From NCBI GenBank assembly GCA_946055075.1, contig CAMGEN010000004.1, forward strand, positions 3,522 to 67,521: a stretch of 64,000 bases of DNA, written 5' to 3'. Position numbers and translations under genes: made by a program. The DNA is from an uncultured Verrucomicrobiota bacterium. Lineage in GTDB: Bacteria; Verrucomicrobiota; Kiritimatiellia; RFP12; UBA1067. How positions within the stretch are numbered: the stretch's first letter is position 1; the number at the start of each line of letters is the position of its first letter. Positions 3 through 61,863 of the stretch are shown piece by piece. Under the pieces are notes generated by a model, which made no database searches, had not been told where the DNA came from, and saw nothing but the letters and a program-made list of their open reading frames with translations.

Positions 3-1238
3 GTGACCAAGAACGACCAGCGTTTCGTCTACAACGGTTATCTCTGTATCAAGAAGATTGACGATTCCGCAACTGCTCACTCATCACTGCTCCCTGATCA
101 CTACTTCATCTGGGACCCGGCCGAGCCTGTCGCAACGCGTCCGCTCGGTTGGCTTGTCGTAGGAGAAAACTCCCCAACTTCTCAACCCTCAACTTCCCAA
201 CTTTTCTTTTACACCCACGACGGCAACAAGAACGTGAGTGAAGTTGTCGATGACAACGGCGAAGTTTCCGCCCACTATGAATATGCTCCATTTGGTTCTA
301 TTCTCGTCACGATCGGCGAATGTGCTTCGGCCAACCCTTGGCGTTTCTCGTCAGAGTATGCTGAAGATGATTCTGCAACAGTTTACTATAACTATCGGCA
401 TTTTAATACTTGGTTTGGCAGATGGTGTTGTGCCGATCCAATAGGTGACGTAGGTGGTTTGAATTCTTATTTATTGTGCCGGAATATGGTGACGCGGTTT
501 GTTGACTGCATAGGTTTGTTTTCCTCCTTTATCATAGAGACGCATCAGAATATTGTCCAGGCGGCGATTGATGATATGATTAAAGATGGCGACGTGATGT
601 GTTTGGCTGATGCCAAACGTAGACGCCAAATAGTCGAATACTTAAAATATACCAATGCAAAGATGGACTCTAAGTATAGCGATGATAAATATCTTGAGAT
701 GCATTTCAATAGAATTAAGGGGGATCATGATGAGTATAAGGCAATAGTAAGTTACACAAATTACCTATGGACTTGGGATACAAAAATAGAGTCTTTCATT
801 TTGAAAGGTGGAAATGATGGATGCCGTTCTGCGTTGCGGTCTTTAGGTGAGTTGACTCATATGTTGCAAGATTATTATGGGCATGGGGTTTCGTTTGATT
901 ATAATGATGGGGATGTCGACATCGAGATCGGTTATGCAGTTGGAGATCCATATAATCCGTTGATGAAGCCATCTGACTACAATGGTTATGTTGGAGGTAG
1001 TGAACATGGGCGCATATGGGATTCAGAACCTGGCATTCGTGCACCAGATGGGCCAGCTAATCCGCATCTTCCGATTACATGGGATTATGATGTTGGCAGG
1101 TTAGGAATGGCGAAAGAAGAAACAAAGAAAGCTTTCAATAATTATCTACGAAAATGGTGTGAGAAGTGTTGCAAAGCGCGGATACCTTTGGTTGGAAGAG
1201 CAAGGCCTCGTTCGCCGCATTCGGGACGTAGACATTAA
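3..1238 (+). CDS. Rhs/YD-repeat polymorphic toxin, C-terminal portion (5' end outside window): RHS repeat-associated core plus variable C-terminal toxin domain
   Basis: Frame is open to the window edge. YEYAPFG, NPWRFSSEY, YYNYRHFNTWFGRWCCADPIGDVGGLNSY and DCIGL reproduce the canonical Rhs core terminus (RYYxPxxGRFxxxDPIG...DPxGL). About 230 aa of unrelated tail follows, and the DNA becomes visibly AT-richer from ~400. Confidence 0.85.
   Translation: MTKNDQRFVYNGYLCIKKIDDSATAHSSLLPDHYFIWDPAEPVATRPLGWLVVGENSPTSQPSTSQLFFYTHDGNKNVSEVVDDNGEVSAHYEYAPFGSILVTIGECASANPWRFSSEYAEDDSATVYYNYRHFNTWFGRWCCADPIGDVGGLNSYLLCRNMVTRFVDCIGLFSSFIIETHQNIVQAAIDDMIKDGDVMCLADAKRRRQIVEYLKYTNAKMDSKYSDDKYLEMHFNRIKGDHDEYKAIVSYTNYLWTWDTKIESFILKGGNDGCRSALRSLGELTHMLQDYYGHGVSFDYNDGDVDIEIGYAVGDPYNPLMKPSDYNGYVGGSEHGRIWDSEPGIRAPDGPANPHLPITWDYDVGRLGMAKEETKKAFNNYLRKWCEKCCKARIPLVGRARPRSPHSGRRH
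172..203. repeat. Tandem 7-8 nt micro-array (reverse complement reads AAGTTGGG AAGTTGAG GGTTGAGA AGTTGGGG) inside the Rhs CDS
   Basis: ccccaacttctcaaccctcaacttcccaactt has CAAC recurring every 7-8 nt. It encodes SPTSQPSTSQL. Same unit type as the array at 44625. Confidence 0.6.
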
Positions 1239-1255
1239 CAGGAATGATTTGATAT

Positions 1256-3764: not shown

Positions 3765-3800
3765 TCGTAACGGATGTTCGCTTCGGGCAGAAAGGACGAT

Positions 3801-6416
3801 ATGGATATGAAGATGATGCTGGCTGTCGTCGGAATGACGGCGGGTTTCGTGGCGGGGGCGGCGGTGATCGAGGCTGGACACGCCGGATCGGTAGAGCTGC
3901 GCGAACTCGGTGTGACGATGGGTCCTGTGCTCATTGATAAGGACTGGTCGCAGTACCGAGCGACTGGTTCGTGGATGCCGGCGGAGGACGGAACGACGGA
4001 CTTCAGGCTCAAGGATCGCGCGGGCAAGGTGATTGTCGAAGGCAAGGCGAATTACAGCGCCGATTCCGGTAAGATCAAGGTTCGTTGGGATTTCACGGTC
4101 AAGGAGACGTTCTCGGGGAACGGACTCGTCGTCGCGACGAGCCTTCCGATCGCGAAGTTCGCGGGGGATGAGCTGCTGCTGGACGGGATGAAGAAGACGC
4201 TTCCCGCGGAACGGCAGGAGAATCCGTTTATCGCCAACAGGTCCGTGAAGACGATGACGGTGGGCGGCAGGAAGCTCGAATTCGGGTTTAGTGCGCCGAC
4301 TGCGGTCCATGTGCAGGATAACCGCAAGTGGAACGGTCGCGATTACGGGGCCCGGTTCTCGACCGGGGTGAATGATCTCAAGTCCGGTGAACGGCGATCG
4401 CTTGAGGTCGTGATTTCTGCTGATGGCGCGCTCGAGTTCGTGAAGGGTCTGACGGTGATCGGCGGAGATGAATGGGTTCCGCTTGAGGATTCGACCGTGA
4501 TCAGGGAGGGGAGTGTGCTCGACTTCTCCAAGATGCCGTGGATCGATGCGCCGGCGGGGAAGCACGGACGGGTGGTGGTGCGGAACGGACACTTCGAGTT
4601 CGAGAAGCTGCCGGGCGTGAGGCAGCGTTTCTACGGAGTGAACCTCGTGTTCGGCGCGTGCTACATGAACGAGCGGGAGGCGGAGGATCTTGCGGACCGG
4701 ATCGTGCGCATGGGCTACAATACGATCCGCATCCATCATCACGAGCGGGAGCTCTGCGACAAGCAGGATGGCACGACAATCCGTCAGGAGCAGATGGCGA
4801 AGCTTGACTATCTGATGAATGCGTGCATTAAGCGCGGCATCTATGTCACGACCGATCTCTACGTCTCGCGCAACGTTCCGTGGCGGAGTTGCGGTGTTGA
4901 TAAAGACGGGATCATTCCGATGCAGGAGTTCAAGGAGCGCATCCTTTTCCAGGAGGGCGTGTATTCGAACTATCTCGCGTTCGCGCGTCAGTTCCTCAAT
5001 CACGTCAATCCGAAGACGGGACGCCGCTGGGCGGATGAACCCGCGCTCGCGCATCTCGCGCTCGTCAACGAGGGCAATCTCGGCAACTGCGGCTACGGAG
5101 TGATCCGCGATCTTCCCGAGGTCAAGGCGGCGTACAAGGGCGTGATTCCGAAGAATCCGTGGGAGAATACCGTCGACAATCAGAGGTTCTGCATCTATCT
5201 GGCGGACGTGGAGACCGCGTTCGTGAAGAAGATGCAGAGGTTTATTCGGGAGGAGATCAAGAGCGAGGTGCTGCTGACGGACCTCTCCTGCTGGAAGAAT
5301 CCGGTCCAGTTCCAGCTACCGCGTCAGCTCTTCGACTATATCGACGATCACTTCTACGTCGATCATCCGTCCTTCCTCGAGCAGAGCTGGCGTCTGCCCT
5401 CGAAGCTTCCGAACACGAACCCGGTGCGCAATACGCGCAATCTCGGCTTCGAGGCGGTGTTCAAGCACCGTGATCTGCATAAGCCGTTCACGCTCACCGA
5501 GTTCAACTATTCGGGACCAGGACAGTTCCGCGGCGTCGGCGGCATGATGCTCGGCGCACAGGCGGCGCTGCAGGATTATGACGGCGCGTGGCGTTTCGCG
5601 TGGAGTCACGACCACGACGGCGCGCTGACGCCGAAGTCGATGAACTATTTCGATGTTGCCAGGGATCCGCTGCAGCGTGCGACCGAAAGAGCGGTGATGA
5701 CGCTTTTTATGCGTCAGGACATGAAGCCGCTGACGAGGACCTATGCGCTAGCGTTTCCGGAGGCGAAGCTTCGTGACGAGACGATCGGACTTCCGCAGGC
5801 GGACATGAAGAGCGAGTGGTTCGGGTGGTATTACCGGCTTGGGACCGCGGTCACCGGCCTGGATCCGAAGTGGTCCGTTGACGATTATCCCGGATACGAT
5901 TCCGTCAAGGATTCGTACTACCGCGATCTCGTGAAGGGGCTTACTCCCGGAGACGGACAGGTCGTGCTCGATCCCGAGCAAGGGATCTTCGGCGTTGTCA
6001 CGCCGATGACCTGCGGTTTCTTCGCCGAGCGCGGCGGTTTTGCCGCGGGTGCGGTGAAGGCGGAGATTGCAGGGGCTCCGGCGGCGGTGTGGGCTAGTTC
6101 GCTGGACGGCAAGCCGGTCGCGGAATCCGCGCATGTCCTGTTAACCCACGTTACGGACGTTCAGGATACCGGCACGCTGTATGCGGACAAGGCGAAGACA
6201 ATCCTCTGCAAGTGGGGTAAGCTTCCGCACATGATGCACAAGGGGACGGCGATGATTCGCGTCAAAACCGCCGCGGAGAAGGTCTATGCGGTCGGTTCAG
6301 ATGGCTCCCGCCGCGGCGAAATCGCCGCGGAGCGCCAGGGCGACGAACTCGTCTTCACCGCCGATACCGCGCGTGATCCGTCTTCCGCGACCTACCTTTA
6401 CGAGCTCGTGAAGTAA
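3801..6416 (+). CDS. Glycoside hydrolase, clan GH-A TIM-barrel type (GH5-like), secreted
   Basis: YGVNLVFG...GYNTIRIHHHE and LALVNEGN (NE acid/base motif). Signal-like MDMKMMLAVVGMTAGFVAGAAV. Start chosen at the ATG after AAAGGA; the ORF track start 3774 is also possible. Confidence 0.6.
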   Translation: MDMKMMLAVVGMTAGFVAGAAVIEAGHAGSVELRELGVTMGPVLIDKDWSQYRATGSWMPAEDGTTDFRLKDRAGKVIVEGKANYSADSGKIKVRWDFTVKETFSGNGLVVATSLPIAKFAGDELLLDGMKKTLPAERQENPFIANRSVKTMTVGGRKLEFGFSAPTAVHVQDNRKWNGRDYGARFSTGVNDLKSGERRSLEVVISADGALEFVKGLTVIGGDEWVPLEDSTVIREGSVLDFSKMPWIDAPAGKHGRVVVRNGHFEFEKLPGVRQRFYGVNLVFGACYMNEREAEDLADRIVRMGYNTIRIHHHERELCDKQDGTTIRQEQMAKLDYLMNACIKRGIYVTTDLYVSRNVPWRSCGVDKDGIIPMQEFKERILFQEGVYSNYLAFARQFLNHVNPKTGRRWADEPALAHLALVNEGNLGNCGYGVIRDLPEVKAAYKGVIPKNPWENTVDNQRFCIYLADVETAFVKKMQRFIREEIKSEVLLTDLSCWKNPVQFQLPRQLFDYIDDHFYVDHPSFLEQSWRLPSKLPNTNPVRNTRNLGFEAVFKHRDLHKPFTLTEFNYSGPGQFRGVGGMMLGAQAALQDYDGAWRFAWSHDHDGALTPKSMNYFDVARDPLQRATERAVMTLFMRQDMKPLTRTYALAFPEAKLRDETIGLPQADMKSEWFGWYYRLGTAVTGLDPKWSVDDYPGYDSVKDSYYRDLVKGLTPGDGQVVLDPEQGIFGVVTPMTCGFFAERGGFAAGAVKAEIAGAPAAVWASSLDGKPVAESAHVLLTHVTDVQDTGTLYADKAKTILCKWGKLPHMMHKGTAMIRVKTAAEKVYAVGSDGSRRGEIAAERQGDELVFTADTARDPSSATYLYELVK

Positions 6417-6498
6417 GAAAAAGCACTTGCTTATCGGCAAGAAGAATGTTACTATTTTGGTTAAAAGCCTCGTTTGTGGGAATCTAAGGAATGCAATA

Positions 6499-9400
6499 AT
6501 GAACAAATTGCTGTTTCTTGCCGTTGCGGTACTGGCCGCGGGTATGCCGTCGTTACACGCGGATGAGCCGTCCGGCTTCGCGAAGAAGGTTGAGCTCACG
6601 CTCTCGAATGCGGCGAAAACCGCAATCGGAGAAGGATCTTTCGCCAACGTCCCGATTCTTGTGAAGCTCAGCACGGCGATTTCCGGCTTCGCTTATTCGG
6701 ACTTCCAGAGCGCGCGCGGATCGGATATGATCTTCGTGGATGAACAGGGGAACGTCATTCCGCACGAAATCGACACGTGGGATCCGACCGGCGAATCGCT
6801 CGTCTGGCTCAAGCCCGCCACCTTGTCATCCGCCCTCGGCAAGATCACGATGTACTACGGGAGCGCGGATATACCAGCGTCATCCGCTAGCGACGTGTGG
6901 CGCAACTACACGGGTGTTTGGCACTTTGAGGATGCGACCGGGCTTTCAACTTCGCAGTCTGAACAATGGCCGACTGCGAAAGCGGTGTATGCGAACTCGA
7001 CGGCAGTTGAGGGGTTGGAGGGATTTTTGCATACCGCGTCTATTCCAGATGAGGTCGGGTGCTTTGGCAAGTGTTTTCGTGTGAACACCGCCGGATGCAA
7101 GACCGGGAATTATAACGATGGTGGCGTGTGGGTGAATGATGCGGGCGAAAATTCTCCGCTTGATTGTAATGGGACATTCACCATCTCAGGGTGGTTTAAG
7201 CATCCCACCGAAAAATATTATTACGACCACATTTTCTATAAACGTTCGGCGAGTGATAATTTGGCGAAATCCGGAACCAAGCAGTTCGTCAACGGATTCG
7301 CCGTCGAGCTAAGCGCCAAAGTTGCCGCAACTCCGAAGTTTGATGTGCGCGGCAGTGGCAGCACGTCAAAGCAGGGGGGTGCCATCGATGCGTATGATAA
7401 GTGGTCATATCTGACATTTGTCTTTAACGGCACTAATCTTGACGTGTATGAAAATGGAGTGAACGAATACAGCTCGACTGGACTTGACACCGTGAAGGAC
7501 AACAATGCGCCGTTAGCATTTGGCGCGCGTCCCGACGTCGCGTATTCCGGTTTTACGGGCGATGCCCACTGGTGTGGTTGGATCGATGAGGTTCGCTTTA
7601 GCTCGTCCGCCGCGACGGCCGATTATGTATCCGTCGAATACAAGGCGATGACGCAGGACTTCTTTGATTTCGGCGAAGCGCAGTCGCTGGCGGAGGACCT
7701 GCCGGTCTTGGGTGTTCCTGAACTACAGTGGGACGGCGATAAATGGAATTTCTCGGCTGAGATGTCAGGTGGCCGCGGTAAGATTTATTCCGTTATTACC
7801 GATGTGGCTACAGGCATGGCGGTGACCAATGCGGTTTCAGACGGTGTTGTTGAGGGGATTGGAGCATTTGGCTTTTCGCCAGACCTTGCGTCCGGTGGAG
7901 TTTATACGTTCTTTGTGCTGGGGGTCACTGCTTCGGACATCGCCGTCAAGGTGTATGGCGAGTATCAGGTGTCCGCGGATGCCGTTACGGTTATAAAGAC
8001 GAAGGATGCGGAAGAGGCGGGCAGGGTTCCGGGCCGATTTGTGTTTTCGCGCGCGACAGGCGGACCTGAATTTACGTTGCAGTATGAGGTTTCCGGTACG
8101 GCGGTCGCAGGCGAGTCGTATGCGGAGATTTCAGGCGCGGTGACATTCGGCGAAGGAGTGACTGAAGTCGTGGTCAGTGTTGATCCCTATATCAACCCGA
8201 CGGTGAACGAGGATACAACGGTCATAGTCGCGCCGGCGTCAAGGGCTCAGCTCGCTGTCGCGTCCGCCACAATGACGATTGTCAATGACACGGCCGCTTC
8301 CGGTGCGGTGACGCGTTTCGTTTCCGTGACGGGAAATGATGAAAACGACGGACTCACGATGGCTCACCCTCTGCGCTCGGTAGCGGTTGCTTGTGCAGCC
8401 GTTGAAGCCGCCCTTACGGATGACGGCAAGGGATGCGTGTATGTGGGTGCCGGAAATTACGCCGAGACATCCAGCGTTTCCGGATCGAATGACAAGAGCT
8501 GCGTCGTAGTGACCAAGGCGATATCCGTAATCGGACTTACCGGTGATGCGGATGATGTCGTCATCACCCGTGGTACACAGTCATGCCGTCTGTTCGAAAT
8601 CAACCATGCGGATGCGAAACTCCAATTCCTTACGCTGAGGGGCGGGTATCTTGATTCGGCGACCGACAGTGCCGGCGGGTGCGCGATGATCGGCTCGAAC
8701 GGCGGAACGATAGCGGACTGCGTTCTGGAGAATGGAACTGCGCACAAATGGGGCGGCGGAGGCGGAAACCTCTATATGATTGACGGACGAGTCGTTCGCA
8801 CCGTTATTAGGAACGGTACGGTACTAGAATCATCACTTCGAGCCGGACGCATAGGCGGAGGTGGTGTCGCGATGAAGGGGGGGATAATCGAGAACTGTCT
8901 CATCACCGGCAATACCAAGGGATATGCCGCCGGAGTGATGGTTTACGGAGGTAAGGTGCTGAATTGCACGGTCACGGGGAATTCCGAAGCCCAATGCGGC
9001 GGCATCATGGTAAAGGCGGGAACCTCGAGTGAGGTGCGGAACACGATTATCTACGGTAATGTTGGAACTTCGACGGAAGAGCCGGACAATTGTAATGTCT
9101 ATATTATCTCTTCGGGAGATTCCAGTGTCGGCTGGAGCGGCACGGATAGCGTCTTCTTTAATTGTTATGGTGAAGTTGCGATCAATGCGAATTGTACTGC
9201 CGCCAACCCTTATTTTGCCGCGCCGGAAATCGGGGATTACCGACTTCGTGCGCTTTCGTCATGCCGTGATGTGGTGACGGATTATTCAACTACCGGTGCG
9301 ATATCGGATACGGATCTGGACGGCGAGTCGCGGCAGCGTGGTGCCGCGGTTGACGCGGGATGCTATGAAATGGATCAAAGCGTGTTTGCCGTTGATTTTG

Positions 9401-10725
9401 ATTTCATACCGCGAGGATTGTTTACTCCAGCCGTTGTGGATTGCAGGGCGGTTGCCATTGGCGGCGAGGGGACGATTGTCTACAAGTGGGATTTGGATGG
9501 CGACGGAGTGGCGGAACGTGAGACCACGGATTCGGCTTTCGTGTGGAATGATTTCCCTGCCGGGACTTGGACGGTCGGTGTCAAAGCGACGGACGGATCC
9601 GCTCGAGAGGTCTCCGCGGTCAAGACGATATCGGTAAAGACGGCGCCGAGGAATATGTATGTGAAGGACAGTAATCCTGACGCGCAATTCCCTTATGATA
9701 CTTGGGAGACGGCGGCGAGCGGTCTGGCGGGAATGCGTGCCGCTGTAGCGGCTGGTATCGACGGTTCGACGGTCTGGGTCGGTGACGGCGTCTATGCGCA
9801 TGGCATTAACGACGGCGTCGGCGTTACGATTTCCGAAGGCGTCCGGCTGATTGGTTACAGCGGGGATCCTTCGTCGGTGGTCATCACGAATACGCTCGGG
9901 CTTGCGAACGCCAATGCGGGTCGCAGCGACCTTCGTGACGTCTGCCTGAATCACCCGAACGCGTTCGTGGCCAATATGACTCTCGCGAAGGGCAGTATCT
10001 ACCACAATGGCAACAAGGGAGGGAATGTGACGATCGATACGCTCGGAGGCACTGTCTCCAACTGCGTGCTAACCGCCGGTAGTGCGGCCAATTACTACGG
10101 TGACTGCGGCGGCGCTTTTCTTTCGGCGGGACTGCTGACGCATTGCATTATTGAAAAGAGCACCATTCAGTCCAAAGGTGCCGGGAATAAGGGAGCGGCG
10201 ATCTTCTCGAAGTCCGGTTCCAGGGTTTCGAACTGCCTCATCCGTGATGTTGTCAATGAAGTGGCGGTAGAGGCCAATATTGTCCGTGTTGCTGGTCAGA
10301 TCGAAAACTGCACTGTAGTCAACTGCAATGTAGGCACGAACAACCACGAGGCCGTTCGTTGTGATTCCACTGCGGACGCGCGAAATGTTGTGGCGTTCGG
10401 GAACACGGCACCATCCGGTGTCGACGAAGCAACCGTGGTCCGCGGTTTCGGTGGTACGGCGACCTGCTTCATCAATTGCGCGTCAGATGACGATTCTCCG
10501 GTTGACGGGACGGATTGTATCACGATTACCGCGGCGGCGTTCAAGGACTACGTGAACGGCGATTTCACACCGGCTTCCGGCGGGGCGCTTCGCAACGCCG
10601 GCGTGCCGATCGCGAACGCTCCGAAGAAGGATCTTGCGGGCAAGAAGCGGATTCGCGACTCGAACATCGACATCGGCTGCTACGAGTATCAGCCGCCGGT
10701 CGGTCTCAAGTTGTTTGTGAAATGA
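6499..10725 (+). CDS. Very large secreted DUF2341/LamG-like plus two right-handed beta-helix modules and a PKD-like domain (adhesin or polysaccharide-binding type)
   Basis: Signal peptide MNKLLFLAVAVLAAGMPSLHA. DUF2341-like VPILVKL...GSDMIFVDEQGNVIPHEIDTWDP..SLVWLKP. Repeated G-x-(I/V)-x-N-C beta-helix rungs. Each module ends DxDGxxR..AVDAGCYEM or NIDIGCYEY. Confidence 0.75.
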   Translation: MNKLLFLAVAVLAAGMPSLHADEPSGFAKKVELTLSNAAKTAIGEGSFANVPILVKLSTAISGFAYSDFQSARGSDMIFVDEQGNVIPHEIDTWDPTGESLVWLKPATLSSALGKITMYYGSADIPASSASDVWRNYTGVWHFEDATGLSTSQSEQWPTAKAVYANSTAVEGLEGFLHTASIPDEVGCFGKCFRVNTAGCKTGNYNDGGVWVNDAGENSPLDCNGTFTISGWFKHPTEKYYYDHIFYKRSASDNLAKSGTKQFVNGFAVELSAKVAATPKFDVRGSGSTSKQGGAIDAYDKWSYLTFVFNGTNLDVYENGVNEYSSTGLDTVKDNNAPLAFGARPDVAYSGFTGDAHWCGWIDEVRFSSSAATADYVSVEYKAMTQDFFDFGEAQSLAEDLPVLGVPELQWDGDKWNFSAEMSGGRGKIYSVITDVATGMAVTNAVSDGVVEGIGAFGFSPDLASGGVYTFFVLGVTASDIAVKVYGEYQVSADAVTVIKTKDAEEAGRVPGRFVFSRATGGPEFTLQYEVSGTAVAGESYAEISGAVTFGEGVTEVVVSVDPYINPTVNEDTTVIVAPASRAQLAVASATMTIVNDTAASGAVTRFVSVTGNDENDGLTMAHPLRSVAVACAAVEAALTDDGKGCVYVGAGNYAETSSVSGSNDKSCVVVTKAISVIGLTGDADDVVITRGTQSCRLFEINHADAKLQFLTLRGGYLDSATDSAGGCAMIGSNGGTIADCVLENGTAHKWGGGGGNLYMIDGRVVRTVIRNGTVLESSLRAGRIGGGGVAMKGGIIENCLITGNTKGYAAGVMVYGGKVLNCTVTGNSEAQCGGIMVKAGTSSEVRNTIIYGNVGTSTEEPDNCNVYIISSGDSSVGWSGTDSVFFNCYGEVAINANCTAANPYFAAPEIGDYRLRALSSCRDVVTDYSTTGAISDTDLDGESRQRGAAVDAGCYEMDQSVFAVDFDFIPRGLFTPAVVDCRAVAIGGEGTIVYKWDLDGDGVAERETTDSAFVWNDFPAGTWTVGVKATDGSAREVSAVKTISVKTAPRNMYVKDSNPDAQFPYDTWETAASGLAGMRAAVAAGIDGSTVWVGDGVYAHGINDGVGVTISEGVRLIGYSGDPSSVVITNTLGLANANAGRSDLRDVCLNHPNAFVANMTLAKGSIYHNGNKGGNVTIDTLGGTVSNCVLTAGSAANYYGDCGGAFLSAGLLTHCIIEKSTIQSKGAGNKGAAIFSKSGSRVSNCLIRDVVNEVAVEANIVRVAGQIENCTVVNCNVGTNNHEAVRCDSTADARNVVAFGNTAPSGVDEATVVRGFGGTATCFINCASDDDSPVDGTDCITITAAAFKDYVNGDFTPASGGALRNAGVPIANAPKKDLAGKKRIRDSNIDIGCYEYQPPVGLKLFVK

Positions 10726-18239: not shown

Positions 18240-18243
18240 ATTA

Positions 18244-20916: not shown

Positions 20917-20938
20917 GTTGCTAAAGTGGACGAATATT

Positions 20939-48759: not shown

Positions 48760-48765
48760 TATAAT
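48757..48765 (+). promoter_or_regulatory. Extended -10 box TGaTATAAT whose TGA is the receptor stop codon; 6 nt before the ATG
   Basis: TGA(48757-48759)TATAAT-accaat-ATG(48772). Confidence 0.55.
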
Positions 48766-48771
48766 ACCAAT

Positions 48772-50580: not shown

Positions 50581-50597
50581 TTATCGCCATTGTTCAA

Positions 50598-50619
50598 CTT
50601 CAACTTCGCACTTCAACTT
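50598..50619. repeat. Right arm of the 22-nt inverted repeat (CTTCAACTTCGCACTTCAACTT)
   Basis: Intergenic, immediately upstream of the permease start. Confidence 0.85.
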
Positions 50620-50624
50620 TGTTC

Positions 50625-52853
50625 ATGAAGGTCCGTCATGTCTGCGCAATCCTCGGAATCGCCATCGCCGTCGGCGCGGTGGTGTTCGTCCGGTCGCTGA
50701 TCGCGACGAACGATCATCAGTCCGTCGCCGTCGCGGAGCGGCTGCTGAAGGCGCTGCCTGTCGCAACGGATGCGAAAGTCGCGACGCTGCAGCTCGACTT
50801 CCGTCCCGAAGGACATGTTCTCCAGGGGCCCCCCATGATCGCGATGATCGCGACGCGAACCGGGGAATTGGGAACGGGGAATGGTGTTATTGTCAGCAAG
50901 GCGGTCTTCGCGCAGCGGAAGGTGAAGGAGCTTCCAGGGATCGGCGAAGAGCTGACGTTGGTGGGACGCAAGGGCGCGTACAAGGTCCGGATTGCCGGAT
51001 ACCTCGACTGGGAACGTCCGGTCCGCGGATATCCCAATATGTTCATCTCGCCGGAGACCGCTGCGAAGATCGACGAGGAATGGAACGGATGGGAACCAAT
51101 GACGGCGGAAGAACTTGCGCCGATGTTCCGCAGCGATGCGGGACGTAACATGGACCGCTCTAAGCCGCTTCTTCTCTGGGCTGCGGCGCTTACCGCGCTT
51201 GCGCTCCTGCTCAATTCGCACTTCCTCATGATCGAGTCCCGCCGCAGGGAGTTAGCCACGCTGCGGATGCTCGGCATGACCCGCGGCAGGGTATGCCTGA
51301 TGATGCTGGTCGAGGCGCATGTGCTGGCGGTTATCGGAGCGGTGGCCGGGTGGTTGCTGTCCATCGTCGCGCTCTGGTTGTATGTCAAAGCCGATCCGGC
51401 GACCTTCCCGATGGGGATGGCGGTCGACCAGCGGTGCCTGGGCTGTGCCTTTGCCGGAGCGGTGCTCGTCGCCGTCATCGCGACGCTGATCGCGATGAAG
51501 AGCGCGCTCGCGGTGAAGCCGCTTGAGGCGGCCTCGAATCGTCCCCCGAAGCCCCGCCGTATCGGCATGCTCATCGCCTTCGCCTGCGGATTCGGCGCGT
51601 TTGTCGCGGTCGAGGTCTGGGGCTGCTCGCTCACCAAGCCGTTCATTCCGTCAATAGAGTGGCCGGACGCGATCATCTCGATTCTCCCCGGGGGCGTTTC
51701 GAGCTTCGATATCGAGAAGTTGCAGAAGCTTCCCGGTGTAAAGAAGATCGCTGAACTCCAGCCGCTGCAGGTGAATCTTGATCCGCTGGAGGAGTTGAAG
51801 GGGCCAGTCAGTGAAGAAGGAAGAGTGAAGAGTGAAGAGTTGCGGAAGAAGAATTCTTCAAAGGGGGGATTCGGTGGACGCGGAAAGCAGTATCGCAATG
51901 CGCTGTTGCTTGCGTCCGACTGGCTCCCGGATTTTAAACTGTCCGCTGTACCACTACCACTTCCCACTACCACTCTCGCCGAGGAATTGCAAAAAGGCGA
52001 CAACTGTATCGTCACCGAAATGATGGCTCGCGCTCACGGATGGAAGGTCGGGGATTTCGTGAAGCTGGATTGCGGACGCAACCTCAAGATGGCGCTCAAG
52101 ATCATCGGCATCGTCGATCTTAACTGGCACATGGTGACGTCGCGCGGACTGGTCCGTGGACTGAACCGGATGCCGGTGAACACCGACGGACCGGTCTTCG
52201 TCTCTTTCGACACGCTCGCCGCGTGCGATGCGCGTCCGCAGGAGTTCGTCCATATGACGCATCTGTGGCTCAGCTACGAGCCGGAATTCCTTGCGAAGCA
52301 CGGTCCGTTCCCTGCGGGACGCATCGTCGAGAAGGAGATTGTCGAGGCGCTCGGCGGAGCGTATCGCGCGGATAAGGACGGAGAGGTGCATGGTAATACG
52401 GTGCGGCTGCATTCTCGCGACGAGATCGCGGATGGCACGCTCGCGCACGGCAATCAGCTCGTCGGCGCGATGGCGCGGGTTCCGTTCATCTTCATCGCGG
52501 TGATTTCACTCGGCTTCATCGCGATGCTGGTCGCGTCCGCCGATGCCCGTCGTCGCGAGTTCGTGACGCTCCATGCGGTCGGTGCGACCAAGGCGTATCT
52601 TGCGATGCAGTTGGTGTACGAGGCGCTGAAGGTCGCGCTCTGGGGTGTCGCGCTGGGAGCCGCTGGTGGGGCGCTCGCGGGATGGCTCTTCACCACCGGA
52701 ACGCGTGCGGCGATGTCTAATTGGGGCCTTCCCGCCGCCTTTGATTTTCCTGCTGTCGTGATTATCGAGGGGGCTCTCGGCGCGCTCGTCTTCGCGCTCG
52801 TCGTCGCGGTGCCTGCATCGATGGTGATAATCTCCCGCGCCTTTCGACGTTGA
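50625..52853 (+). CDS. ABC transporter permease with two FtsX-like modules (MacB/LolE type)
   Basis: RRRELATLRMLGMTRGRV and RRREFVTLHAVGATKAYL FtsX hallmark segments, each followed by TM clusters. Large extracytoplasmic domains. Confidence 0.75.
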   Translation: MKVRHVCAILGIAIAVGAVVFVRSLIATNDHQSVAVAERLLKALPVATDAKVATLQLDFRPEGHVLQGPPMIAMIATRTGELGTGNGVIVSKAVFAQRKVKELPGIGEELTLVGRKGAYKVRIAGYLDWERPVRGYPNMFISPETAAKIDEEWNGWEPMTAEELAPMFRSDAGRNMDRSKPLLLWAAALTALALLLNSHFLMIESRRRELATLRMLGMTRGRVCLMMLVEAHVLAVIGAVAGWLLSIVALWLYVKADPATFPMGMAVDQRCLGCAFAGAVLVAVIATLIAMKSALAVKPLEAASNRPPKPRRIGMLIAFACGFGAFVAVEVWGCSLTKPFIPSIEWPDAIISILPGGVSSFDIEKLQKLPGVKKIAELQPLQVNLDPLEELKGPVSEEGRVKSEELRKKNSSKGGFGGRGKQYRNALLLASDWLPDFKLSAVPLPLPTTTLAEELQKGDNCIVTEMMARAHGWKVGDFVKLDCGRNLKMALKIIGIVDLNWHMVTSRGLVRGLNRMPVNTDGPVFVSFDTLAACDARPQEFVHMTHLWLSYEPEFLAKHGPFPAGRIVEKEIVEALGGAYRADKDGEVHGNTVRLHSRDEIADGTLAHGNQLVGAMARVPFIFIAVISLGFIAMLVASADARRREFVTLHAVGATKAYLAMQLVYEALKVALWGVALGAAGGALAGWLFTTGTRAAMSNWGLPAAFDFPAVVIIEGALGALVFALVVAVPASMVIISRAFRR
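51811..51859. repeat. Heptamer array GTGAAGA AGGAAGA GTGAAGA GTGAAGA GTTGCGG AAGAAGA ending in the 12-nt palindrome GAAGAATTCTTC, inside the permease CDS
   Basis: Read directly. Encodes SEEGRVKSEELRKKNSS. Confidence 0.8.
51942..51977. repeat. C-rich heptamer module tccgctgtaccactaccacttcccactaccact (copy 1), inside the permease CDS
   Basis: 32/33 identical to 54096-54128. Confidence 0.9.
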
Positions 52854-52856
52854 TTT

Positions 52857-52865
52857 TGGTAGAAT
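52857..52865 (+). promoter_or_regulatory. Extended -10 box TGgTAGAAT, 7 nt before the ATG (leaderless geometry)
   Basis: tggtagaat-acaatca-ATG(52873). Confidence 0.5.
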
Positions 52866-52872
52866 ACAATCA

Positions 52873-53601: not shown

Positions 53602-54644
53602 AGTCCATTCAGGAAATCGTCGATCTCGCCAGTGCCTACTACGGTAGTGCCGTCCTTTTCGCCGCCATTGACAATGACGTGTTCGCACGCGTCGAGCAGG
53701 GCGAGTTCAACGCGGCAGAACCGCCGCGGGGGATGCGGTTGCTGCTGGATGCGTGCGTCGCCGAAGGACTGCTGGAGAAGACGGATGGCAGGTACGCCAA
53801 CACCCAGGCCGGAAAGATGGCGCTGATTCCAGGCGGTCCGGCGGATCTTACCAAGGCGATCCGCTACAACCGCGACGTCTATCCCGCGTGGGGCAGGCTT
53901 GCCGAGTTCGCTAAGACCGGTAAGCCCGTGGAGCGTCCCGAGCTCCACCTCGGCGAAGACTCCGCACGGACCAAGGCTTTCGCCGCCTCGATGTTTGGAC
54001 GTGCGATGGGCATCGGCAAAGGCGTCATCACGATGCTTGATTTAGTTGTAGTTGAGAGTGGTAGTGGTACAAAGGCTGATAAAGCTCTTGATGATTCCGC
54101 TGTACCACTACAACTTCCCACTACCACTATTCACGTCCTCGACCTCGCCGGTGGACCGGGCGCGTACGCGATTCTGATGTGTCAGGCGAATCCCGGGATG
54201 AAGTGCGTTACGGTCGATCTTCCCGCGATCTCCGCGGAGGCGCAGGGCTATGTCGCGAAGTTCGGGCTTGCTGACCGCATCGAGTGCCGCGCGGGAGATT
54301 ATCATACGGACGAATACGAGTCCGAGGCCTATGATGTCGTCACGATCTTCGGCGCCCTCCACCAGGAGTCGCCGGCGCAGATCGTCGACATCCTCAGGCG
54401 TGCGCATCGCGCGCTCAGGAAGGGCGGGAAGGTGGTGGTACTCGACATGATGACGGACTCCACTCACACCGCTCCGAAGTTCTCCGCGCTCTTCGCGGTC
54501 AATATGGCGCTCACGACCGAAAACGGCTGGGTGTTCGCGGACAGCGAGCTCAAGGAATGGATGCGTGAGGCGGGATTTGTTCCCGGCGAGACTAAGCGGG
54601 TTCCTCCTCCGATGCCGCACTGGATCGTCGAGGGGTCTAAGTGA
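53598..54644 (+). CDS. Class I SAM-dependent (O-)methyltransferase
   Basis: VLDLAGGPGAYA (motif I), DLPAIS, GGKVVVLDMM. ATGA overlap with the upstream gene. Confidence 0.75.
   Translation: MKSIQEIVDLASAYYGSAVLFAAIDNDVFARVEQGEFNAAEPPRGMRLLLDACVAEGLLEKTDGRYANTQAGKMALIPGGPADLTKAIRYNRDVYPAWGRLAEFAKTGKPVERPELHLGEDSARTKAFAASMFGRAMGIGKGVITMLDLVVVESGSGTKADKALDDSAVPLQLPTTTIHVLDLAGGPGAYAILMCQANPGMKCVTVDLPAISAEAQGYVAKFGLADRIECRAGDYHTDEYESEAYDVVTIFGALHQESPAQIVDILRRAHRALRKGGKVVVLDMMTDSTHTAPKFSALFAVNMALTTENGWVFADSELKEWMREAGFVPGETKRVPPPMPHWIVEGSK
54045..54132. repeat. Inverted pair of heptamer arrays inside the methyltransferase CDS (GTTGTAG TTGAGAG TGGTAG TGGTACA ... 29 nt ... TGTACCACTACAACTTCCCACTACCACT)
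   Basis: Perfect 11-nt inverted repeat GTAGTGGTACA/TGTACCACTAC (54061-54071 and 54101-54111). The right arm is copy 2 of the 33-nt module. Confidence 0.8.
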
Positions 54645-54689
54645 AGAGGGGAATGGGGAATTGGGAATGGGGAATTGGGAATGAAGAAG
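54641..54689. repeat. Seven tandem heptamers GTGAAGA GGGGAAT GGGGAAT TGGGAAT GGGGAAT TGGGAAT GAAGAAG
   Basis: Spans the methyltransferase stop (54642-54644) and the start codon of the next gene. Confidence 0.9.
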
Positions 54690-55829
54690 CTGAACGTCAT
54701 AGCTGCGGGACTTGGATGGAAGGGTCTTGAAGCCGCCGGGATGACCGAGATGGCGGGACTGAAGTTCTCGCCGAAGGAGTCCTGTTTTCCCGCGGTCACC
54801 TGTGTCGCGCAGGCTAATTTCCGCACTGGGCTTACCCCCGCCGAGCACGGGATGGTCGCGAACGGCTGGTGGAGCGAGACGCTGAAGAAGCCGCTTTTCT
54901 GGGAGCAGAGCGCGAAGCTCGTAAAGGGCAGGCGCGTGTGGTCCGACCGCCGCGCTGCTGGCGAGAAGTTCGGGATGTTCTTCTTTCAGCAGTCGCTTGG
55001 CGAAGAGGTCGACCTCGTCATTTCGCCGGCGCCGGTTCACAAGCACGGCGGCGGGATGATCATGGCGTGTTACACGCAGCCGACGGGGATGGAGGCGATC
55101 ATCAGGAAGCTCTGCGGAAAGTTCCCGTTGTGGCGGTATTGGGGTCCGCTCGCGTCTCCGAAGGTCGGACGCAAGTGCATCGCGTACTTCAACGCGATGA
55201 CGGACGCGCATGATGTCGACGAGGCGTATCTGTACCTGCCGACGCTGGACTATACGGCGCAGAAGTACGGTCCCGCTTCGTCGCAGCACGCCTCGGCGCT
55301 GAAGGAGTTCCGTCATCAGCTGGAGACGCTGTCGGACATCTGCATGCACCGCGGTTGCGAGCTTTCGGTGGAGGGCGATTACGAGATCACCGAGGTGACG
55401 ATGGTTCCGGTGTGTCCGAACGTGGCGCTTCGCAAGGCGGGGTTTTTCAAGACGCGCACGGTCGGCGGCATGGCGTATCCCGACTTTTATCAGTCCTCGG
55501 CTTTCGCGATGTGTGACCACGAGTTCTGCGTCGTCTGTGGCGAGAAACGCGACGAGGCGGTGAAGCTCCTCCTTGCCACCGGCGAATACGAGCTGCCTCC
55601 GCAACCAACCTGTTCCCTGCTTCCCGCTCACTGTTCCCTGCTCCTCGCGAAGCGAGGAGCGTGGTGCGAGTACAAGTGGTGGACCGATGACCGCGAGGCG
55701 CCCGACTTCGCTTCGCACGTCGATATTCATAACAAGCCGGGCTTCGATCCAAAGGAGCTCTTCTTCTTCAACCGCGGCACTGTCCGCGGCACCCATGGGC
55801 GTCAGTGCCAGGTTGCTGCCGCGTTGTGA
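54681..55829 (+). CDS. Alkaline-phosphatase-superfamily nucleotide pyrophosphatase/phosphodiesterase-like protein
   Basis: FPAVTCVAQANFRTGLTPAEHGMVANGWW matches the metal-site Thr/His region of type I phosphodiesterases. Start is ATG 54681 or TTG 54675. Confidence 0.65.
   Translation: MKKLNVIAAGLGWKGLEAAGMTEMAGLKFSPKESCFPAVTCVAQANFRTGLTPAEHGMVANGWWSETLKKPLFWEQSAKLVKGRRVWSDRRAAGEKFGMFFFQQSLGEEVDLVISPAPVHKHGGGMIMACYTQPTGMEAIIRKLCGKFPLWRYWGPLASPKVGRKCIAYFNAMTDAHDVDEAYLYLPTLDYTAQKYGPASSQHASALKEFRHQLETLSDICMHRGCELSVEGDYEITEVTMVPVCPNVALRKAGFFKTRTVGGMAYPDFYQSSAFAMCDHEFCVVCGEKRDEAVKLLLATGEYELPPQPTCSLLPAHCSLLLAKRGAWCEYKWWTDDREAPDFASHVDIHNKPGFDPKELFFFNRGTVRGTHGRQCQVAAAL
55610..55660. repeat. Heptamer array CTGTTCC CTGCTTC CCGCTCA CTGTTCC CTGCTCC running into a 9-bp-stem hairpin GCTCCTCGC-GAA-GCGAGGAGC, inside a CDS
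   Basis: Read directly. The 12-nt ctgttccctgct repeats at a 21-nt spacing. Encodes CSLLPAHCSLLLAKRGA. Confidence 0.75.
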
Positions 55830-55835
55830 TATAAT
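55827..55835 (+). promoter_or_regulatory. Extended -10 box TGaTATAAT whose TGA is the upstream stop codon; 8 nt before the ATG
   Basis: TGA(55827-55829)TATAAT-atttgtca-ATG(55844). Confidence 0.55.
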
Positions 55836-55843
55836 ATTTGTCA

Positions 55844-57592: not shown

Positions 57593-57623
57593 AAAATTCG
57601 GCGTCTGTTGATGCCGAATTTTT
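57593..57623 (+). terminator. Rho-independent terminator
   Basis: AAAATTCGGC-gtctgttgat-GCCGAATTTTT. Confidence 0.8.
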
Positions 57624-57631
57624 GATATAAT
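57623..57631 (+). promoter_or_regulatory. Extended -10 box TGaTATAAT fused to the terminator T-tract
   Basis: tgatataat-actcaattaac-ATG(57643). Confidence 0.5.
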
Positions 57632-57642
57632 ACTCAATTAAC

Positions 57643-59713: not shown

Positions 59714-59741
59714 GTAAAGAGGTAAAAGTTGCGGAAGCGGA
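59714..59741. repeat. Short heptamer array GTAAAGA GGTAAAA GTTGCGG AAGCGGA (intergenic)
   Basis: Shares GTTGCGGAAG with the array at 51839. Confidence 0.5.
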
Positions 59742-59751: not shown

Positions 59752-61842
59752 ATGGCGGAGCAGAAACAGAAGCGGTATTTGGGGATTGACATCGGGTCCA
59801 CGACATTTAAGGCTGTGATCCTTGATGCTGATGGCAAGGTCGAGCGTACGATTTACAAGCGTACGCAGCCTGTTGAAAGTGGCAAGGTGGCATGTACCGG
59901 ACACTGTTCGGCTTGTGGCAATTGTTCTGGCGGCTCCGCGAAGAAGCTTTCGCTTGAGTTTCTTCGTTCCGCTGGGATTGATTTCGCCGGAGTTGATAAG
60001 CTCGTTGTTACCGGTTCACAGATTGTCGAGGACACCAGGAAGTTCATCCCTTACGACTTTCAGGTTTCGGAAGTGACTGCGCATGTCGAGGGTGCTAAGT
60101 TCCTGCATCCTGACGTTGACGCGATTATCGATTGCGGCGGACAGGATTCGAAGTGCATGGTCTACAATCCGTTCATGAAGCTCTGGACGAGTATGATGAG
60201 CGGTGTTTGCGCGGCCGGTACTGGCAGTTTCCTTGATTCGGTCGCCAACAAGCTCGGCGTGCCGATCGAACAGGTCGCGGGCAAGGTGAATTACGATTCC
60301 GACACCGAGTTTAGTTCGGTTTGCGCAGTGTTGTCCGCGACTTCGATCAACAAGTTCAAGAACCGCGTGCCGATCGGCGATCTGCTCGCGGGCGCGTGCA
60401 AGGCGCAGGCGCGCACGATCCTCAATTCGGTCGGGCAGCTCCTCCTGAACGCCCCTGGGCGTAAGATCCTCTTCCAGGGCGGCGTTGCGTTCAACAAGGC
60501 CGTAGCTTACTTCCTCGAGAAACTTACTGGCTCCCAGATCGTCATCCCTCAGTATCATGAGGTGATGGGTGCGCTTGGAGCGGCGGTGATCGCGAAGAAG
60601 CTCGACGAGCTCGGTCCGGATGTGAAGATCGCAAAGGTCGAGTACGAGCCCACTCGCGGCAAGTCCGCGCTTCTCCGCATCAAATCTACGAAGCACGACT
60701 TCTTCTCAAAGGACGAGTCGAAGCCGCTCGTTTGGCGCAATCTTTTCTTCCCGACTGAGATCCTCAATGCCTTCGACTGCCGTATCCGTACGCTTGAGAC
60801 TTACGCTGCATTGTTTGGGCGCAAGGCCGATTTCGTGAAGGAGGCGCTAGGAAATGCTGCGCAGAAGGGCTACGATCAGCAGACCTGTTCGTTCCTCCGC
60901 ATGCTCGAGGGCATGAAGCTTGAGAAGCCGGATTTCGTCGTTTCGACTTCGCAGCCATGCCAGCAGGCGGAGCGTGTTTTCGAGGATCTTGTTACTGAGT
61001 ACGAATGTCCGGATCGGTTGTATTCGTTGCAGACTCCGATTAAGCGTCAGAGCGCGCATGCTGTGGAGATGATGGCCGAAGGGCTTTCTGAGGCGATTTA
61101 TATGATGGAGAAGTCGTTCGGCAGAAAGCTCGACATGGGGCGTCTTGAGGAGGCGTGCGTCCTTTCGAACGAGGCGGCCGAGATCGGCAGGAAATGCAAT
61201 GAGCTTCGCTTTACTTCGCCGCCTCTCGTCAAGGGGTCAGAGGCGATTTATAATGCGGTTGTGTTCTCCCAGCTCTGGGGCACGAGGGATCTTGTCGAGA
61301 TTCAGAAGGCGTGGCACGAAGAATTGCTGATGAAGAAGGAGTGGGCAGAGAAGCGTATGTCGATTGACGACACCCACCGTATTCTCTGGATGCATTTGCC
61401 GCCGTTTTACGACAACAAGCATCTCACTTATCTTGAGAATGTCTGCAATGCGCCAATCGTGTTCGAGGAGACCAACTTCATCGGGTGGAGTCCGCTCGAC
61501 CCGAAGGATCCGATGCGTTCGCTCGCGAAGAAGTTGTTGGAGTCTGGCTTCCTCGATCCAGCGCTACGTGTCGAATACGTGAAGAGGTCCATCCCGGCTG
61601 CAAAGTTCAACGGTGTCGTTCTTTATACTCACGGATTCGGACGTTGTTCGCTTGCGGACCGTTCGTTCTCGAAGTTGCTTCGCAACGAACTTGACAAGAT
61701 TGGCGTTCCCCTGCTGGCGCTCGAAGGCGATTGCATGGACGCGTCGATCGATCCGTGTTCGACTGTCACCAAGATTGCGTCCTTCACCGAGGCGCTGAAT
61801 CTGAAGAAATACGGGAATATCTTCGGACGGATCGAGAAGTGA
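59752..61842 (+). CDS. Fusion of a BcrAD/BadFG-type ATPase (2-hydroxyacyl-CoA dehydratase activase-like) with a dehydratase (HgdB/D-component-like) domain
   Basis: YLGIDIGSTTFKAVI (ASKHA phosphate-1 motif), DCGGQDSK, and Cys cluster CTGHCSACGNC. The C-terminal half has conserved Cys residues typical of HGD-D proteins. Confidence 0.65.
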   Translation: MAEQKQKRYLGIDIGSTTFKAVILDADGKVERTIYKRTQPVESGKVACTGHCSACGNCSGGSAKKLSLEFLRSAGIDFAGVDKLVVTGSQIVEDTRKFIPYDFQVSEVTAHVEGAKFLHPDVDAIIDCGGQDSKCMVYNPFMKLWTSMMSGVCAAGTGSFLDSVANKLGVPIEQVAGKVNYDSDTEFSSVCAVLSATSINKFKNRVPIGDLLAGACKAQARTILNSVGQLLLNAPGRKILFQGGVAFNKAVAYFLEKLTGSQIVIPQYHEVMGALGAAVIAKKLDELGPDVKIAKVEYEPTRGKSALLRIKSTKHDFFSKDESKPLVWRNLFFPTEILNAFDCRIRTLETYAALFGRKADFVKEALGNAAQKGYDQQTCSFLRMLEGMKLEKPDFVVSTSQPCQQAERVFEDLVTEYECPDRLYSLQTPIKRQSAHAVEMMAEGLSEAIYMMEKSFGRKLDMGRLEEACVLSNEAAEIGRKCNELRFTSPPLVKGSEAIYNAVVFSQLWGTRDLVEIQKAWHEELLMKKEWAEKRMSIDDTHRILWMHLPPFYDNKHLTYLENVCNAPIVFEETNFIGWSPLDPKDPMRSLAKKLLESGFLDPALRVEYVKRSIPAAKFNGVVLYTHGFGRCSLADRSFSKLLRNELDKIGVPLLALEGDCMDASIDPCSTVTKIASFTEALNLKKYGNIFGRIEK

Positions 61843-61863
61843 GGTTGAAGGTTGAGAGTGGAA
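61843..61863. repeat. Short heptamer array GGTTGAA GGTTGAG AGTGGAA (intergenic)
   Basis: Read directly. Weak (3 units). Confidence 0.45.

Follow-up and report, generated by a model that had tools for sequence, protein, structure and literature searches.

A 64,000-nt stretch of DNA from an uncultured Verrucomicrobiota bacterium of the Kiritimatiellia (contig CAMGEN010000004.1, positions 3,522 to 67,521; the whole stretch is hereafter called the window) raises the question of how short tandem arrays of 7-nt units came to lie at many dispersed places, some between genes and others in frame inside unrelated genes, and what they do there. We catalogued 22 such arrays, approximately 15 within open reading frames (ORFs) and 6–7 in spacers, and found that they are related copies of one another rather than independent microsatellites. 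We consider it probable that they belong to a selfish or neutral heptanucleotide family resembling the short tandemly repeated repetitive (STRR) sequences, in which copying carries arrays from one locus to another, slippage alters them, and selection retains those at tolerant sites and in a stop-free orientation.

The window has a G+C content of ~56% with a positive GC skew along its whole length, and ~95% of it is coding (4.8% non-coding), with nearly all genes on the + strand. Exact-protein look-ups placed window proteins in pig-gut metagenome contigs of one species; matches to the window's Bax1-I protein were short contigs only. The nearest named homologues of the window helicase came from metagenome-assembled genomes (MAGs) labelled “Kiritimatiellae bacterium,” and the closest representative genome was “Verrucomicrobia bacterium UBA1727,” whose FtsX is 67% identical to that of the window. 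For comparison we used L001, the UBA1727 relative and the nearest relative of the window; L027, a sister species with 85% nucleotide identity; ten strains ~99.3% identical over 15.5 kb; and a second strain set covering the helicase site.

Period-7 arrays exceed shuffled controls

Tandem Repeats Finder (TRF) reported period-7 arrays at 14635, 18243, 19881, 44625/44634, 48800, 51810, and 54648. In a lag-p self-match scan requiring 12/14 matches, we counted nine period-7 arrays compared with 0.23 in dinucleotide shuffles, and at a stricter setting (16/21 matches) seven compared with 0.1. The same scan of the window returned no arrays at periods 4, 5, 8, 10, 11, or 16, and 7 was the only non-triplet period over-represented there. 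The preliminary description of this DNA had allowed for 8-nt units as well; the 7-nt period held, whereas period 8 showed no excess and was rejected as its own class, the apparent 8-mers being heptamers with an indel. Genome-wide lag-7 periodicity was likewise rejected, because the signal was local and limited to ~0.9 kb of arrays. An excess at periods 9, 12, and 15 was due to a long Gln/Met-rich low-complexity coding stretch at 42700–43400 (CAG/CAA, periods 9–21, with a 57-nt repeat), which forms the C-terminal part of a 1150-aa protein in a Bat/aerotolerance-like operon. Within genes, six arrays were observed, compared with 0.10 when codons were permuted and 0.21 under synonymous shuffling (maximum of two among 100 shuffles), and thus the reading survived the codon-preserving control proposed when it was first put forward.

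Every string listed in the preliminary description was found at its position. Its figure of at least 17 loci of 3–7 units rose to ~22, including four additional arrays (66–101, 44970–44995, 48965–49000, and 50862–50884), while several listed loci proved to hold only 2–3 degenerate units or a period of 6; placement inside ORFs stood as well, with a count of ~15/22 instead of about eleven. The loci at 59714, 61843, 50188, 50598, 55610, and 25797 are of this weak kind and are not individually significant, and were counted because they have strings in common with strong arrays. Spacers, 4.8% of the window, hold 6/22 arrays (p = 5e-4), which indicates a preference for non-coding DNA; the majority are nonetheless intragenic, because the genome is 95% coding. 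An Rfam scan of the window returned two tRNAs only, and no array was covered by an Rfam family. The arrays, in window coordinates, are as follows.

66–101, − strand: GTGATCA GGGAGCA GTGATGA GTGAGCA GTTGCGGA (as read on the − strand), in frame in an RHS-like ORF (3–1238), with a GCGGA tail
172–203, − strand: CCCAACT/TCTCAAC, in frame in the same RHS-like ORF (3–1238), peptide SPTSQPSTSQL
14632–14678, − strand: (GAACCAC)x5.6, the most perfect array (TRF score 71), encoding EPRTTNHEPRT in the central cytoplasmic loop of an MFS transporter
18240–18292, + strand: GTGAATA GTGAACA GAGAACA GTGAACA, then GTTTTGG and more, between the TGGTATAAT box and the helicase ATG
19865–19925, + strand: GTGCAGG/GTGCGGA in a lineage-specific insert of a PcrA/UvrD helicase; an allelic site
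25791–25825, + strand: degenerate GGGTAAT/GGGAAAT/TGGGAAT, in frame in an ORF of unassigned role
43613–43641, − strand: CGTTCTT CATTCTT TACTCTT, encoding the signal-peptide part LHSLLFTL; a 14-mer in common with 48819
44625–44662, + strand: AGTTGGG/GTTGAGA, in the spacer and start region 5′ of a TonB-like gene, with stops in all + strand frames
44970–44995, − strand: reverse complement of GGTGCAG GGTGCGG GGCGCGGA, in frame in the TonB-like gene, with a GCGGA tail
48805–48839, − strand: CATTCTT/CGTTCTT, encoding signal-peptide residues LHSSLLVLHSSFAS
48965–49000, + strand: GTGAAAA GGGAGCA GTGAGCA ATGATCA GCTGCGGA, in frame in the gene whose signal peptide holds the 48805 array
50188–50209, + strand: AAGTTGA AGTGTGA AGTTGAAG then AGCGGA, in an ABC ATPase gene
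50581–50624, − strand: 44-nt spacer with CTTCAACTTCGCACTTCAACTT, between the ABC ATPase and FtsX genes
50862–50884, + strand: GGGGAAT TGGGAAC GGGGAAT in an FtsX loop, peptide GELGTGN
51810–51848, + strand: GTGAAGA AGGAAGA GTGAAGA GTGAAGA GTTGCGGAAG, in FtsX; a module also present in other organisms
51942–51974, − strand: TCCGC TGTACCA CTACCA CTTCCCA CTACCA CT, in FtsX, peptide SAVPLPLPTTT; 97% identical to 54096–54128
54043–54129, no strand assigned: 87-nt palindromic element, its two arms of heptamers/hexamers joined by a 29-nt loop, in frame in an O-methyltransferase
54645–54684, + strand: GTGAAGA then (GGGGAAT/TGGGAAT)x5, occupying the spacer up to the next ATG; TRF score 70
55610–55645, − strand: CTGTTCC CTGCTTC CCGCTCA CTGTTCC CTGCTCC (CSLLPAHCSLLLAK), in a phosphodiesterase-family gene; weak, with GCGGA at most 12 nt away
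59714–59738, + strand: GTAAAGAG GTAAAA GTTGCGGAAGCGGA, in a spacer 14 nt 5′ of an ATG
61842–61862, + strand: GGTTGAA GGTTGAG AGTGGAA, in the spacer 5′ of lysS; 10-mers in common with 44625 and 54043

Comparison of the phosphodiesterase-family protein (array 55610) with the PDB returned no matches.

The arrays share strings and a GCGGA end

The units fall into the families GTGAAGA-like, GGGGAAT/TGGGAAT, AGTTGAG/GGTTGAA, GTGGTAG/GTGGGAA, GTGCAGG, and GAACCAC. An exact 10-mer was common to 14 array pairs compared with 0.54 expected (~26 times the level of random segments), and an exact 12-mer to seven pairs compared with 0.16 expected. The three junction strings first pointed out as shared between arrays were confirmed, each at two sites and nowhere else in the window: GTTGCGGAAG at 51839 and 59728, GGGRAATTGGGAATGG at 25811 and 54655, and CGTTCTTCATTCTT at 43613 and 48819. 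FtsX (51942) and the O-methyltransferase (54096), which are unrelated genes, both contain the 33-nt string TCCGCTGTACCACTACMACTTCCCACTACCACT, with one mismatch between them. Other matches were inverted: 66–101 with 48965–49000 (36 nt at 81%), 172–203 with the 44625 array (20 nt at 90%), 44970–44995 with 19886–19910 (84%), and 50188 with 50598 (22 nt at 95%). Five arrays could be aligned as one element, with a common 6-7-6 unit pattern and concerted unit substitutions.

On the G-rich strand, 10/22 arrays ended in GCGGA compared with 1.1 expected, and none of 2000 random draws reached ten. This cap also closes arrays built of other units, as ...GGAATGGCGGACGG twice in L001 and as ...GTTGCGGAAG in L027. 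Together with the 10-mer sharing and the 33-nt string, the GCGGA end supports the earlier proposal of a common origin over chance. The Bacillus subtilis Chi site is AGCGG, and a Chi-site reading of (A/T)GCGGA was considered, but the arrays were without strand bias, being G-rich on the + strand in 12 cases and on the − strand in 10.

Some arrays are also predicted to form structures. The inverted pair at 54043–54129 was predicted to fold as a long hairpin (−17.1 kcal/mol, z = −5.1). For 54645–54684, no Watson-Crick structure was predicted, and ViennaRNA (gquad) predicted a G-quadruplex (G4) both here (−9.7 kcal/mol) and in allele B of the helicase site, described below (−27.7 kcal/mol). These two arrays have a G3+ tract per unit and at least four units; 50862, with three units, and the other unit families do not.

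Array orientation in genes matches the stop-codon pattern

Because three heptamers span 21 nt, an array gives one 7-residue repeat in every frame, and it is the strand rather than the frame that matters for coding. The units GTGAAGA, GTGAACA, AGTTGAG, GGTTGAA, GTGGTAG, and GTAAAGA yield stops in all three frames when read on the G-rich strand, whereas their C-rich strand is free of stops. In genes, these stop-bearing units were found only in the C-rich orientation (172, 43613, 48805, 51942, and 54096) or interrupted (51810 and 54043), while in the G-rich orientation they occupied spacers (18240, 44625, 59714, and 61842). Genes do contain GGGGAAT and GTGCAGG, the units without stops, in the G-rich orientation. 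The orientations observed in genes are thus those expected from the stop codons of each unit.

Arrays appear as insertions relative to orthologues

Alignment with orthologues, proposed at the outset as a check for insertions, showed that the arrays have the signature of insertions in the helicase, FtsX, the O-methyltransferase, the ABC ATPase-to-FtsX junction, and the helicase leader. Approximately 100 of 120 helicase homologues read QIAGN-EGG-LEAFL, a point at which the window lineage adds 15–25 aa that include the array. In FtsX, whose alignment is otherwise well conserved, the three arrays coincide with the three segments that vary: array 51810 corresponds to a 12–17-aa insertion compared with L001–L003, the 51942 array to a 4-aa insertion and replacement compared with relatives, and the 50862 array sits in a variable loop. 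When the O-methyltransferase was compared with its solved homologue DsyB (7wdq), the alignment was broken at residues 150–179, where the homologue has five residues; these residues are encoded by bases 54045–54134, that is, by the inverted pair 54043–54129.

Gene junctions gave the same picture. In L001, L002, and L004, the gene of the ABC ATPase and that of FtsX share an ATGA overlap and no spacer lies between them; in the window, they are set apart by a 44-nt spacer with array 50598. The helicase gene is leaderless in L027 (TGGTATAAT, 7 nt, ATG), and the window has 49 additional bases with array 18240. An extended −10 box (TGnTATAAT, or TGGTAGAAT) ends 6–12 nt 5′ of the ATG, without a Shine-Dalgarno sequence, in many window genes (20930–20955, 26670–26696, 48745–48771, 52850–52872, 55815–55843, and 57615–57642, as well as 18225–18239), which implies that leaderless mRNAs are widespread in this Kiritimatiellae species; orthologous genes of L001 and L027 have the same arrangement.

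Two array-encoded signal peptides in the window (43613 and 48805) and one in L001 are all unlike those of their orthologues; the L001 orthologue of the 48805 gene has a shorter, unrelated signal peptide. The MFS array (14632–14678) lies in a loop region of the alignment with the SPNS homologue, without net insertion, and the L027 segment orthologous to 25791–25825 is strongly diverged, with indels. At three empty/filled comparisons of the window with relatives, we found no convincing target-site duplications. Arrays persist only where they can be tolerated: in operon spacers and a 5′ leader and, within proteins, in signal peptides, in linkers between domains, and in loops at the surface.

Array lengths differ among strains and arrays turn over between species

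Over 15.5 kb, the ten strains differed by five internal indels, and the three longer than 2 nt all lay within arrays: +6 nt at 50198 (the ABC ATPase array) in four strains; +21 nt at 50862 (FtsX) in six strains, equal to three heptamers, which doubles GELGTGN in frame; and −45 nt at 51830 (the FtsX 51810 array) in strain L012. In the second strain set, the helicase site carried two alleles, either the GTGCAGG-type array of the window or (GGGGAAT GGGGAAT TGGGAAT)x2 (allele B), with a +21-nt version of the latter in two strains (x2–3 overall). All in-gene length changes of arrays preserved the frame (+21, +6, −45, and net +12/+33 nt). The 55610 array was point-variable among strains. These comparisons showed near-identical copies at separate loci and length shifts among strains by whole units, those in genes being frame-preserving (21, 6, and 45 nt).

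The helicase gene also differed outside its array. Its Gly-Gly-Tyr repeat tail (20300–20390, period 12 nt) is strain-variable, with a 12-nt indel in L022, and is 36+12 nt shorter in the sister species L027. In strain L026, a 25-nt deletion (20095–20119) splits the gene into 612-aa and 90-aa ORFs, which reflects either a pseudogene or an assembly error.

When the window was compared with L027, all four array sites coincided with indels or strong divergence, and turnover was faster than in the flanks. At one stringency, arrays numbered nine in the 64 kb of the window, four in 17.8 kb of L001, and one in 16 kb of L027; none were found at this stringency in four more distant Kiritimatiellae contigs. 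In L001, a ~240-nt spacer (13780–14020) consists almost wholly of heptamer arrays in series (CTACACC, CATTCCT, and CCTCTAC) with TCCGC at its head.

An array-closing module occurs in other organisms

The 22-mer GTGAAGAGTKAAGAGTTGCGGA was found in eight metagenome contigs of 52–66% G+C, where a heptamer array always ends with it and a GC-rich hairpin usually comes next. L031/L037 and L035 have the array as an arm of a convergent pair, in the order G-rich array, hairpins, C-rich array. By their MAG source labels, L035 proteins cluster with sequences named Oscillospiraceae or Clostridia, and L031 and L037 proteins bear the name “Clostridiales bacterium.” In another organism (L033 at 500–760 and L032 at 3870–5000), an array with a GTTGCGG-like cap and a GTGCCGCTCTGCGGCAC hairpin occurs twice within 300 nt and again 1 kb away, so this is a multi-copy element there too. 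Two patterns searched in viral contigs did not detect the module.

Resemblance to described repeats

The likenesses drawn at the outset, to cyanobacterial STRR heptamers and to Rickettsia palindromic elements (RPEs), both stand as analogies; the accompanying view that the units lack a described equivalent does not, since near-equivalents of GGGGAAT have been published as GGGAATC in Xanthomonas and GGGGA(C/T)T in Nostoc (PMC4692102). Xanthomonas campestris carries 186 GGGAATC arrays, 89% of them intergenic, with 70 convergent inverted pairs, and Nostoc PCC 7120 carries 89 GGGGA(C/T)T arrays, 32% of them intragenic (Rehm et al., 2015; PMC4692102). Oligonucleotides from these repeats formed G4 in vitro, array lengths differed between relatives, and the arrays had position preferences near ORF ends; no function or regulatory role was found (PMC4692102). 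As cited in that paper, Mrazek et al. (2007) found heptameric simple sequence repeats (SSRs) to be over-represented in many bacteria, with polymerase slippage as the hypothesis, and heptanucleotide repeats of Calothrix represent the cyanobacteria (PMC4692102).

The window arrays behave as STRR/heptanucleotide SSRs do, with a period-7 excess, dispersed related loci, copy-number variation among strains, and a preference for non-coding DNA. They share with the STRR type the 7-nt tandem units, the many dispersed loci on both strands, the several unit types, a location that is for the most part in spacers or close to them, alongside a considerable intragenic share (32% in Nostoc), the length variation between relatives, and the lack of an assigned function. 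They differ from it in that the host is a gut anaerobe of the Planctomycetes-Verrucomicrobia-Chlamydiae (PVC) superphylum, arrays have 3–6 units instead of up to 26, the GCGGA cap is common, intragenic copies dominate, and in-frame changes and allele replacement are documented. The likeness to the G4-forming heptamers lies in GGGGAAT/TGGGAAT, which approximates GGGAATN and has at least four G-tracts and a predicted G4 at 54645, in the inverted (convergent) array pairs, and in arrays between co-oriented genes close to ORF ends; however, only ~4/22 window arrays qualify, and GTGAAGA, AGTTGAG, GTGGTAG, and GAACCAC units cannot form G4.

As in RPEs, an in-frame palindrome (54043–54129) encodes a peptide at a tolerant site of the methyltransferase, comprising residues absent from 7wdq, and related copies lie in unrelated genes. 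In contrast with RPEs, which are ~100–150 nt, the window copies measure 87 nt or are single 30-nt arms, are heptamer-periodic, and occupy spacers too; no relationship in sequence is expected, and we treat the likeness as an analogy only. Repetitive extragenic palindromes (REPs) and their doublets (REPINs), which depend on a REP-associated tyrosine transposase (RAYT), are similar as short dispersed repeats with hairpin-capable inverted doublets and a conserved short end motif. REPs are extragenic and not tandem-periodic, whereas most window copies are intragenic, often as single arms, and no RAYT gene was seen in the window, nor any transposase-like Pfam domain in the annotations equivalent to it. 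With regard to miniature inverted-repeat transposable elements (MITEs), some copies have inverted arms, and the three empty/filled comparisons showed no target-site duplication. Small dispersed repeats (SDRs) of cyanobacteria, a description attributed to Elhai and colleagues in 2008, are said to be ~20–30 nt long, to be seemingly copied between loci by an unexplained mechanism, and to lie at times within heptamer arrays and inside genes; their sequences and phylum differ from those of the window arrays. A literature search for Kiritimatiellae repeats and for in-frame heptanucleotide insertions returned nothing usable.

Other features of the window

The two tRNAs lie at 18080–18153 (− strand) and 16413–16494 (+ strand). 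Synteny upstream of the helicase is lost beside the former: at this place L023 and L026 have AbiEi and RHS fragments, and L027 has DUF3987 and HTH_17 genes, which suggests an integration hot spot. At 3774–10725, two ORFs of the window (880 aa and ~1400 aa) stand in the place of a single called 1947-aa gene (Laminin_G_3) in strain L038, and a stop or frameshift difference near 6416–6427 may lie behind the split.

How the arrays may have arisen

In the reading we favor, the arrays all derive from one DNA-level family of small repeats, 20–50 nt in length. Each has a body of 3–6 units of ~7 nt, which on the G-rich strand have the form GTGNNNN or GGGGAAT and as a rule contain no C; the body is often capped 3′ by (GTT/CA)GCGGA, and copies are at times present as inverted pairs able to form a hairpin. 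New copies would derive from existing arrays by ectopic gene conversion or by template switching during replication or repair, and would then be expanded, contracted, and homogenized by slipped-strand mispairing. Most copies would be selfish or neutral passengers rather than adapted parts, and the GGGGAAT subfamily might additionally form G-quadruplexes.

Several observations weigh against this reading. Most arrays were constant in copy number across all 3–10 strains compared, and even the perfect MFS array (5.6 units) was identical in three other strains; with most arrays invariant at ~99% identity, slippage is not fast. Among the strains compared within the species, we saw no presence/absence polymorphism of whole arrays, and neither an enzyme nor a donor-recipient event was observed. 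Slippage alone leaves unaccounted for both the GCGGA cap and the recurrence of the exact 22-mer in contigs named Clostridia, and it is possible that spacer copies function as unstructured C-free leaders or through G4.

The main rival, which we consider doubtful, is that the arrays are miniature mobile elements of a REPIN/MITE/RPE-like kind, in which a GCGGA-capped heptamer arm, often with a hairpin or second inverted arm, is moved by a trans-acting enzyme whose gene lies elsewhere. Such an enzyme could be an HUH nuclease of the RAYT/IS200 type, or else a polymerase or a reverse transcriptase adding heptamers reiteratively from a GCGGA-defined site; in that case, the enzyme and not generic slippage would give rise to the period of 7. 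The conserved polar cap, the discrete insertions of 44–49 nt and 87 nt, the convergent arms with central hairpins in L031/L037, L035, and 54043–54129, the identical 22-nt module in contigs of 52–66% GC (three of them named Clostridia), and the occurrence of two array families as alleles of one helicase site all speak for such elements. However, the insertion sites displayed no target-site duplication or clean empty/filled pair, the window and annotated flanks contained no transposase, RAYT, or reverse transcriptase gene, the strains showed no polymorphism for a whole element, and viral contigs lacked the module. The inverted pairs 50188/50598 and 51810/51942, moreover, flank conserved, essential coding sequence, and therefore are not single inserted elements. 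A broader version, in which a phylum-crossing family of tiny elements (heptamer arm, (GTT)GCGGA cap, and hairpin or inverted arm) is made and spread by a dedicated mechanism, strikes us as unlikely; such a mechanism might, for example, nick or prime at GCGGA and then synthesize 7-nt units reiteratively from a template.

We found it quite improbable that the arrays are selected cis elements, with C-free unstructured leaders aiding initiation, GGGGAAT G4 acting as switches, inverted pairs stabilizing or terminating mRNA, and in-gene copies as by-products. Five of the six spacer arrays are indeed G-rich on the coding strand and end 0–30 nt 5′ of a start codon, but this proportion is not significant (p ~0.11), and most copies are intragenic and in both orientations. 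The 54645 leader, with its predicted G4 and lack of Watson-Crick structure, and the 13–14-nt distance from GTTGCGGAAG to the start codon in two unrelated spacers (59714 and MlaE-MlaF of L027) would fit such a role, as would the ORF-end preference reported for Xanthomonas and Nostoc arrays (PMC4692102). Against it, relatives manage at the orthologous junctions with a 4-nt overlap or with an array-free, leaderless start, the flanks of arrays turn over more slowly than the arrays themselves, and Rehm et al. found no regulatory role for comparable arrays (PMC4692102).

Still less probable, by a wide measure, is that these are contingency loci, phase-variable SSRs that switch genes by frameshift. 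A change of one or two heptamers would shift the frame, and the MFS array offers 5.6 perfect units for this; yet only in-frame changes were seen inside arrays, most arrays are imperfect, and housekeeping genes are among the hosts. Most arrays, that of the MFS gene included, were invariant and so are not contingency loci, and we disfavor phase variation. Chance, codon-usage periodicity, or protein-level selection for 7-residue repeats has next to no probability, for although some listed loci hold only 2–3 degenerate units, three kinds of shuffle (dinucleotide, codon-permutation, and synonymous) gave ~0.1–0.2 arrays compared with 6–9 observed, and the same strings recur in non-coding spacers and on both strands.

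Significance of the arrays

Tandem heptamers have been known in cyanobacteria since 1990 and were later recognized in Xanthomonas; they are statistically over-represented in many bacteria, with their origin and role unexplained. The window arrays belong to this already known class; what is new is its extension to the PVC superphylum (Kiritimatiellae), the short capped elements, the in-frame insertion with frame-preserving changes, and the replacement of one allele by another. The window and its relatives also supply comparative material in the form of 99%-identical strains with in-frame changes, alleles of two families, empty orthologous sites, the GCGGA cap, and the 22-nt module in Clostridia-named contigs.

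For the organism, these repeats remodel signal peptides, linkers, loops, and gene junctions, and in the helicase have turned a leaderless gene into a leadered one. The mobile-element or enzymatic reading is the one that would make the finding important: if the GCGGA cap is the trace of an enzymatic step, the way in which arrays are generated can be tested, and if a dedicated mechanism does exist, it would offer a concrete molecular handle on the 35-year-old STRR/heptamer-repeat puzzle, and proteins could gain new in-frame peptide segments from the elements.

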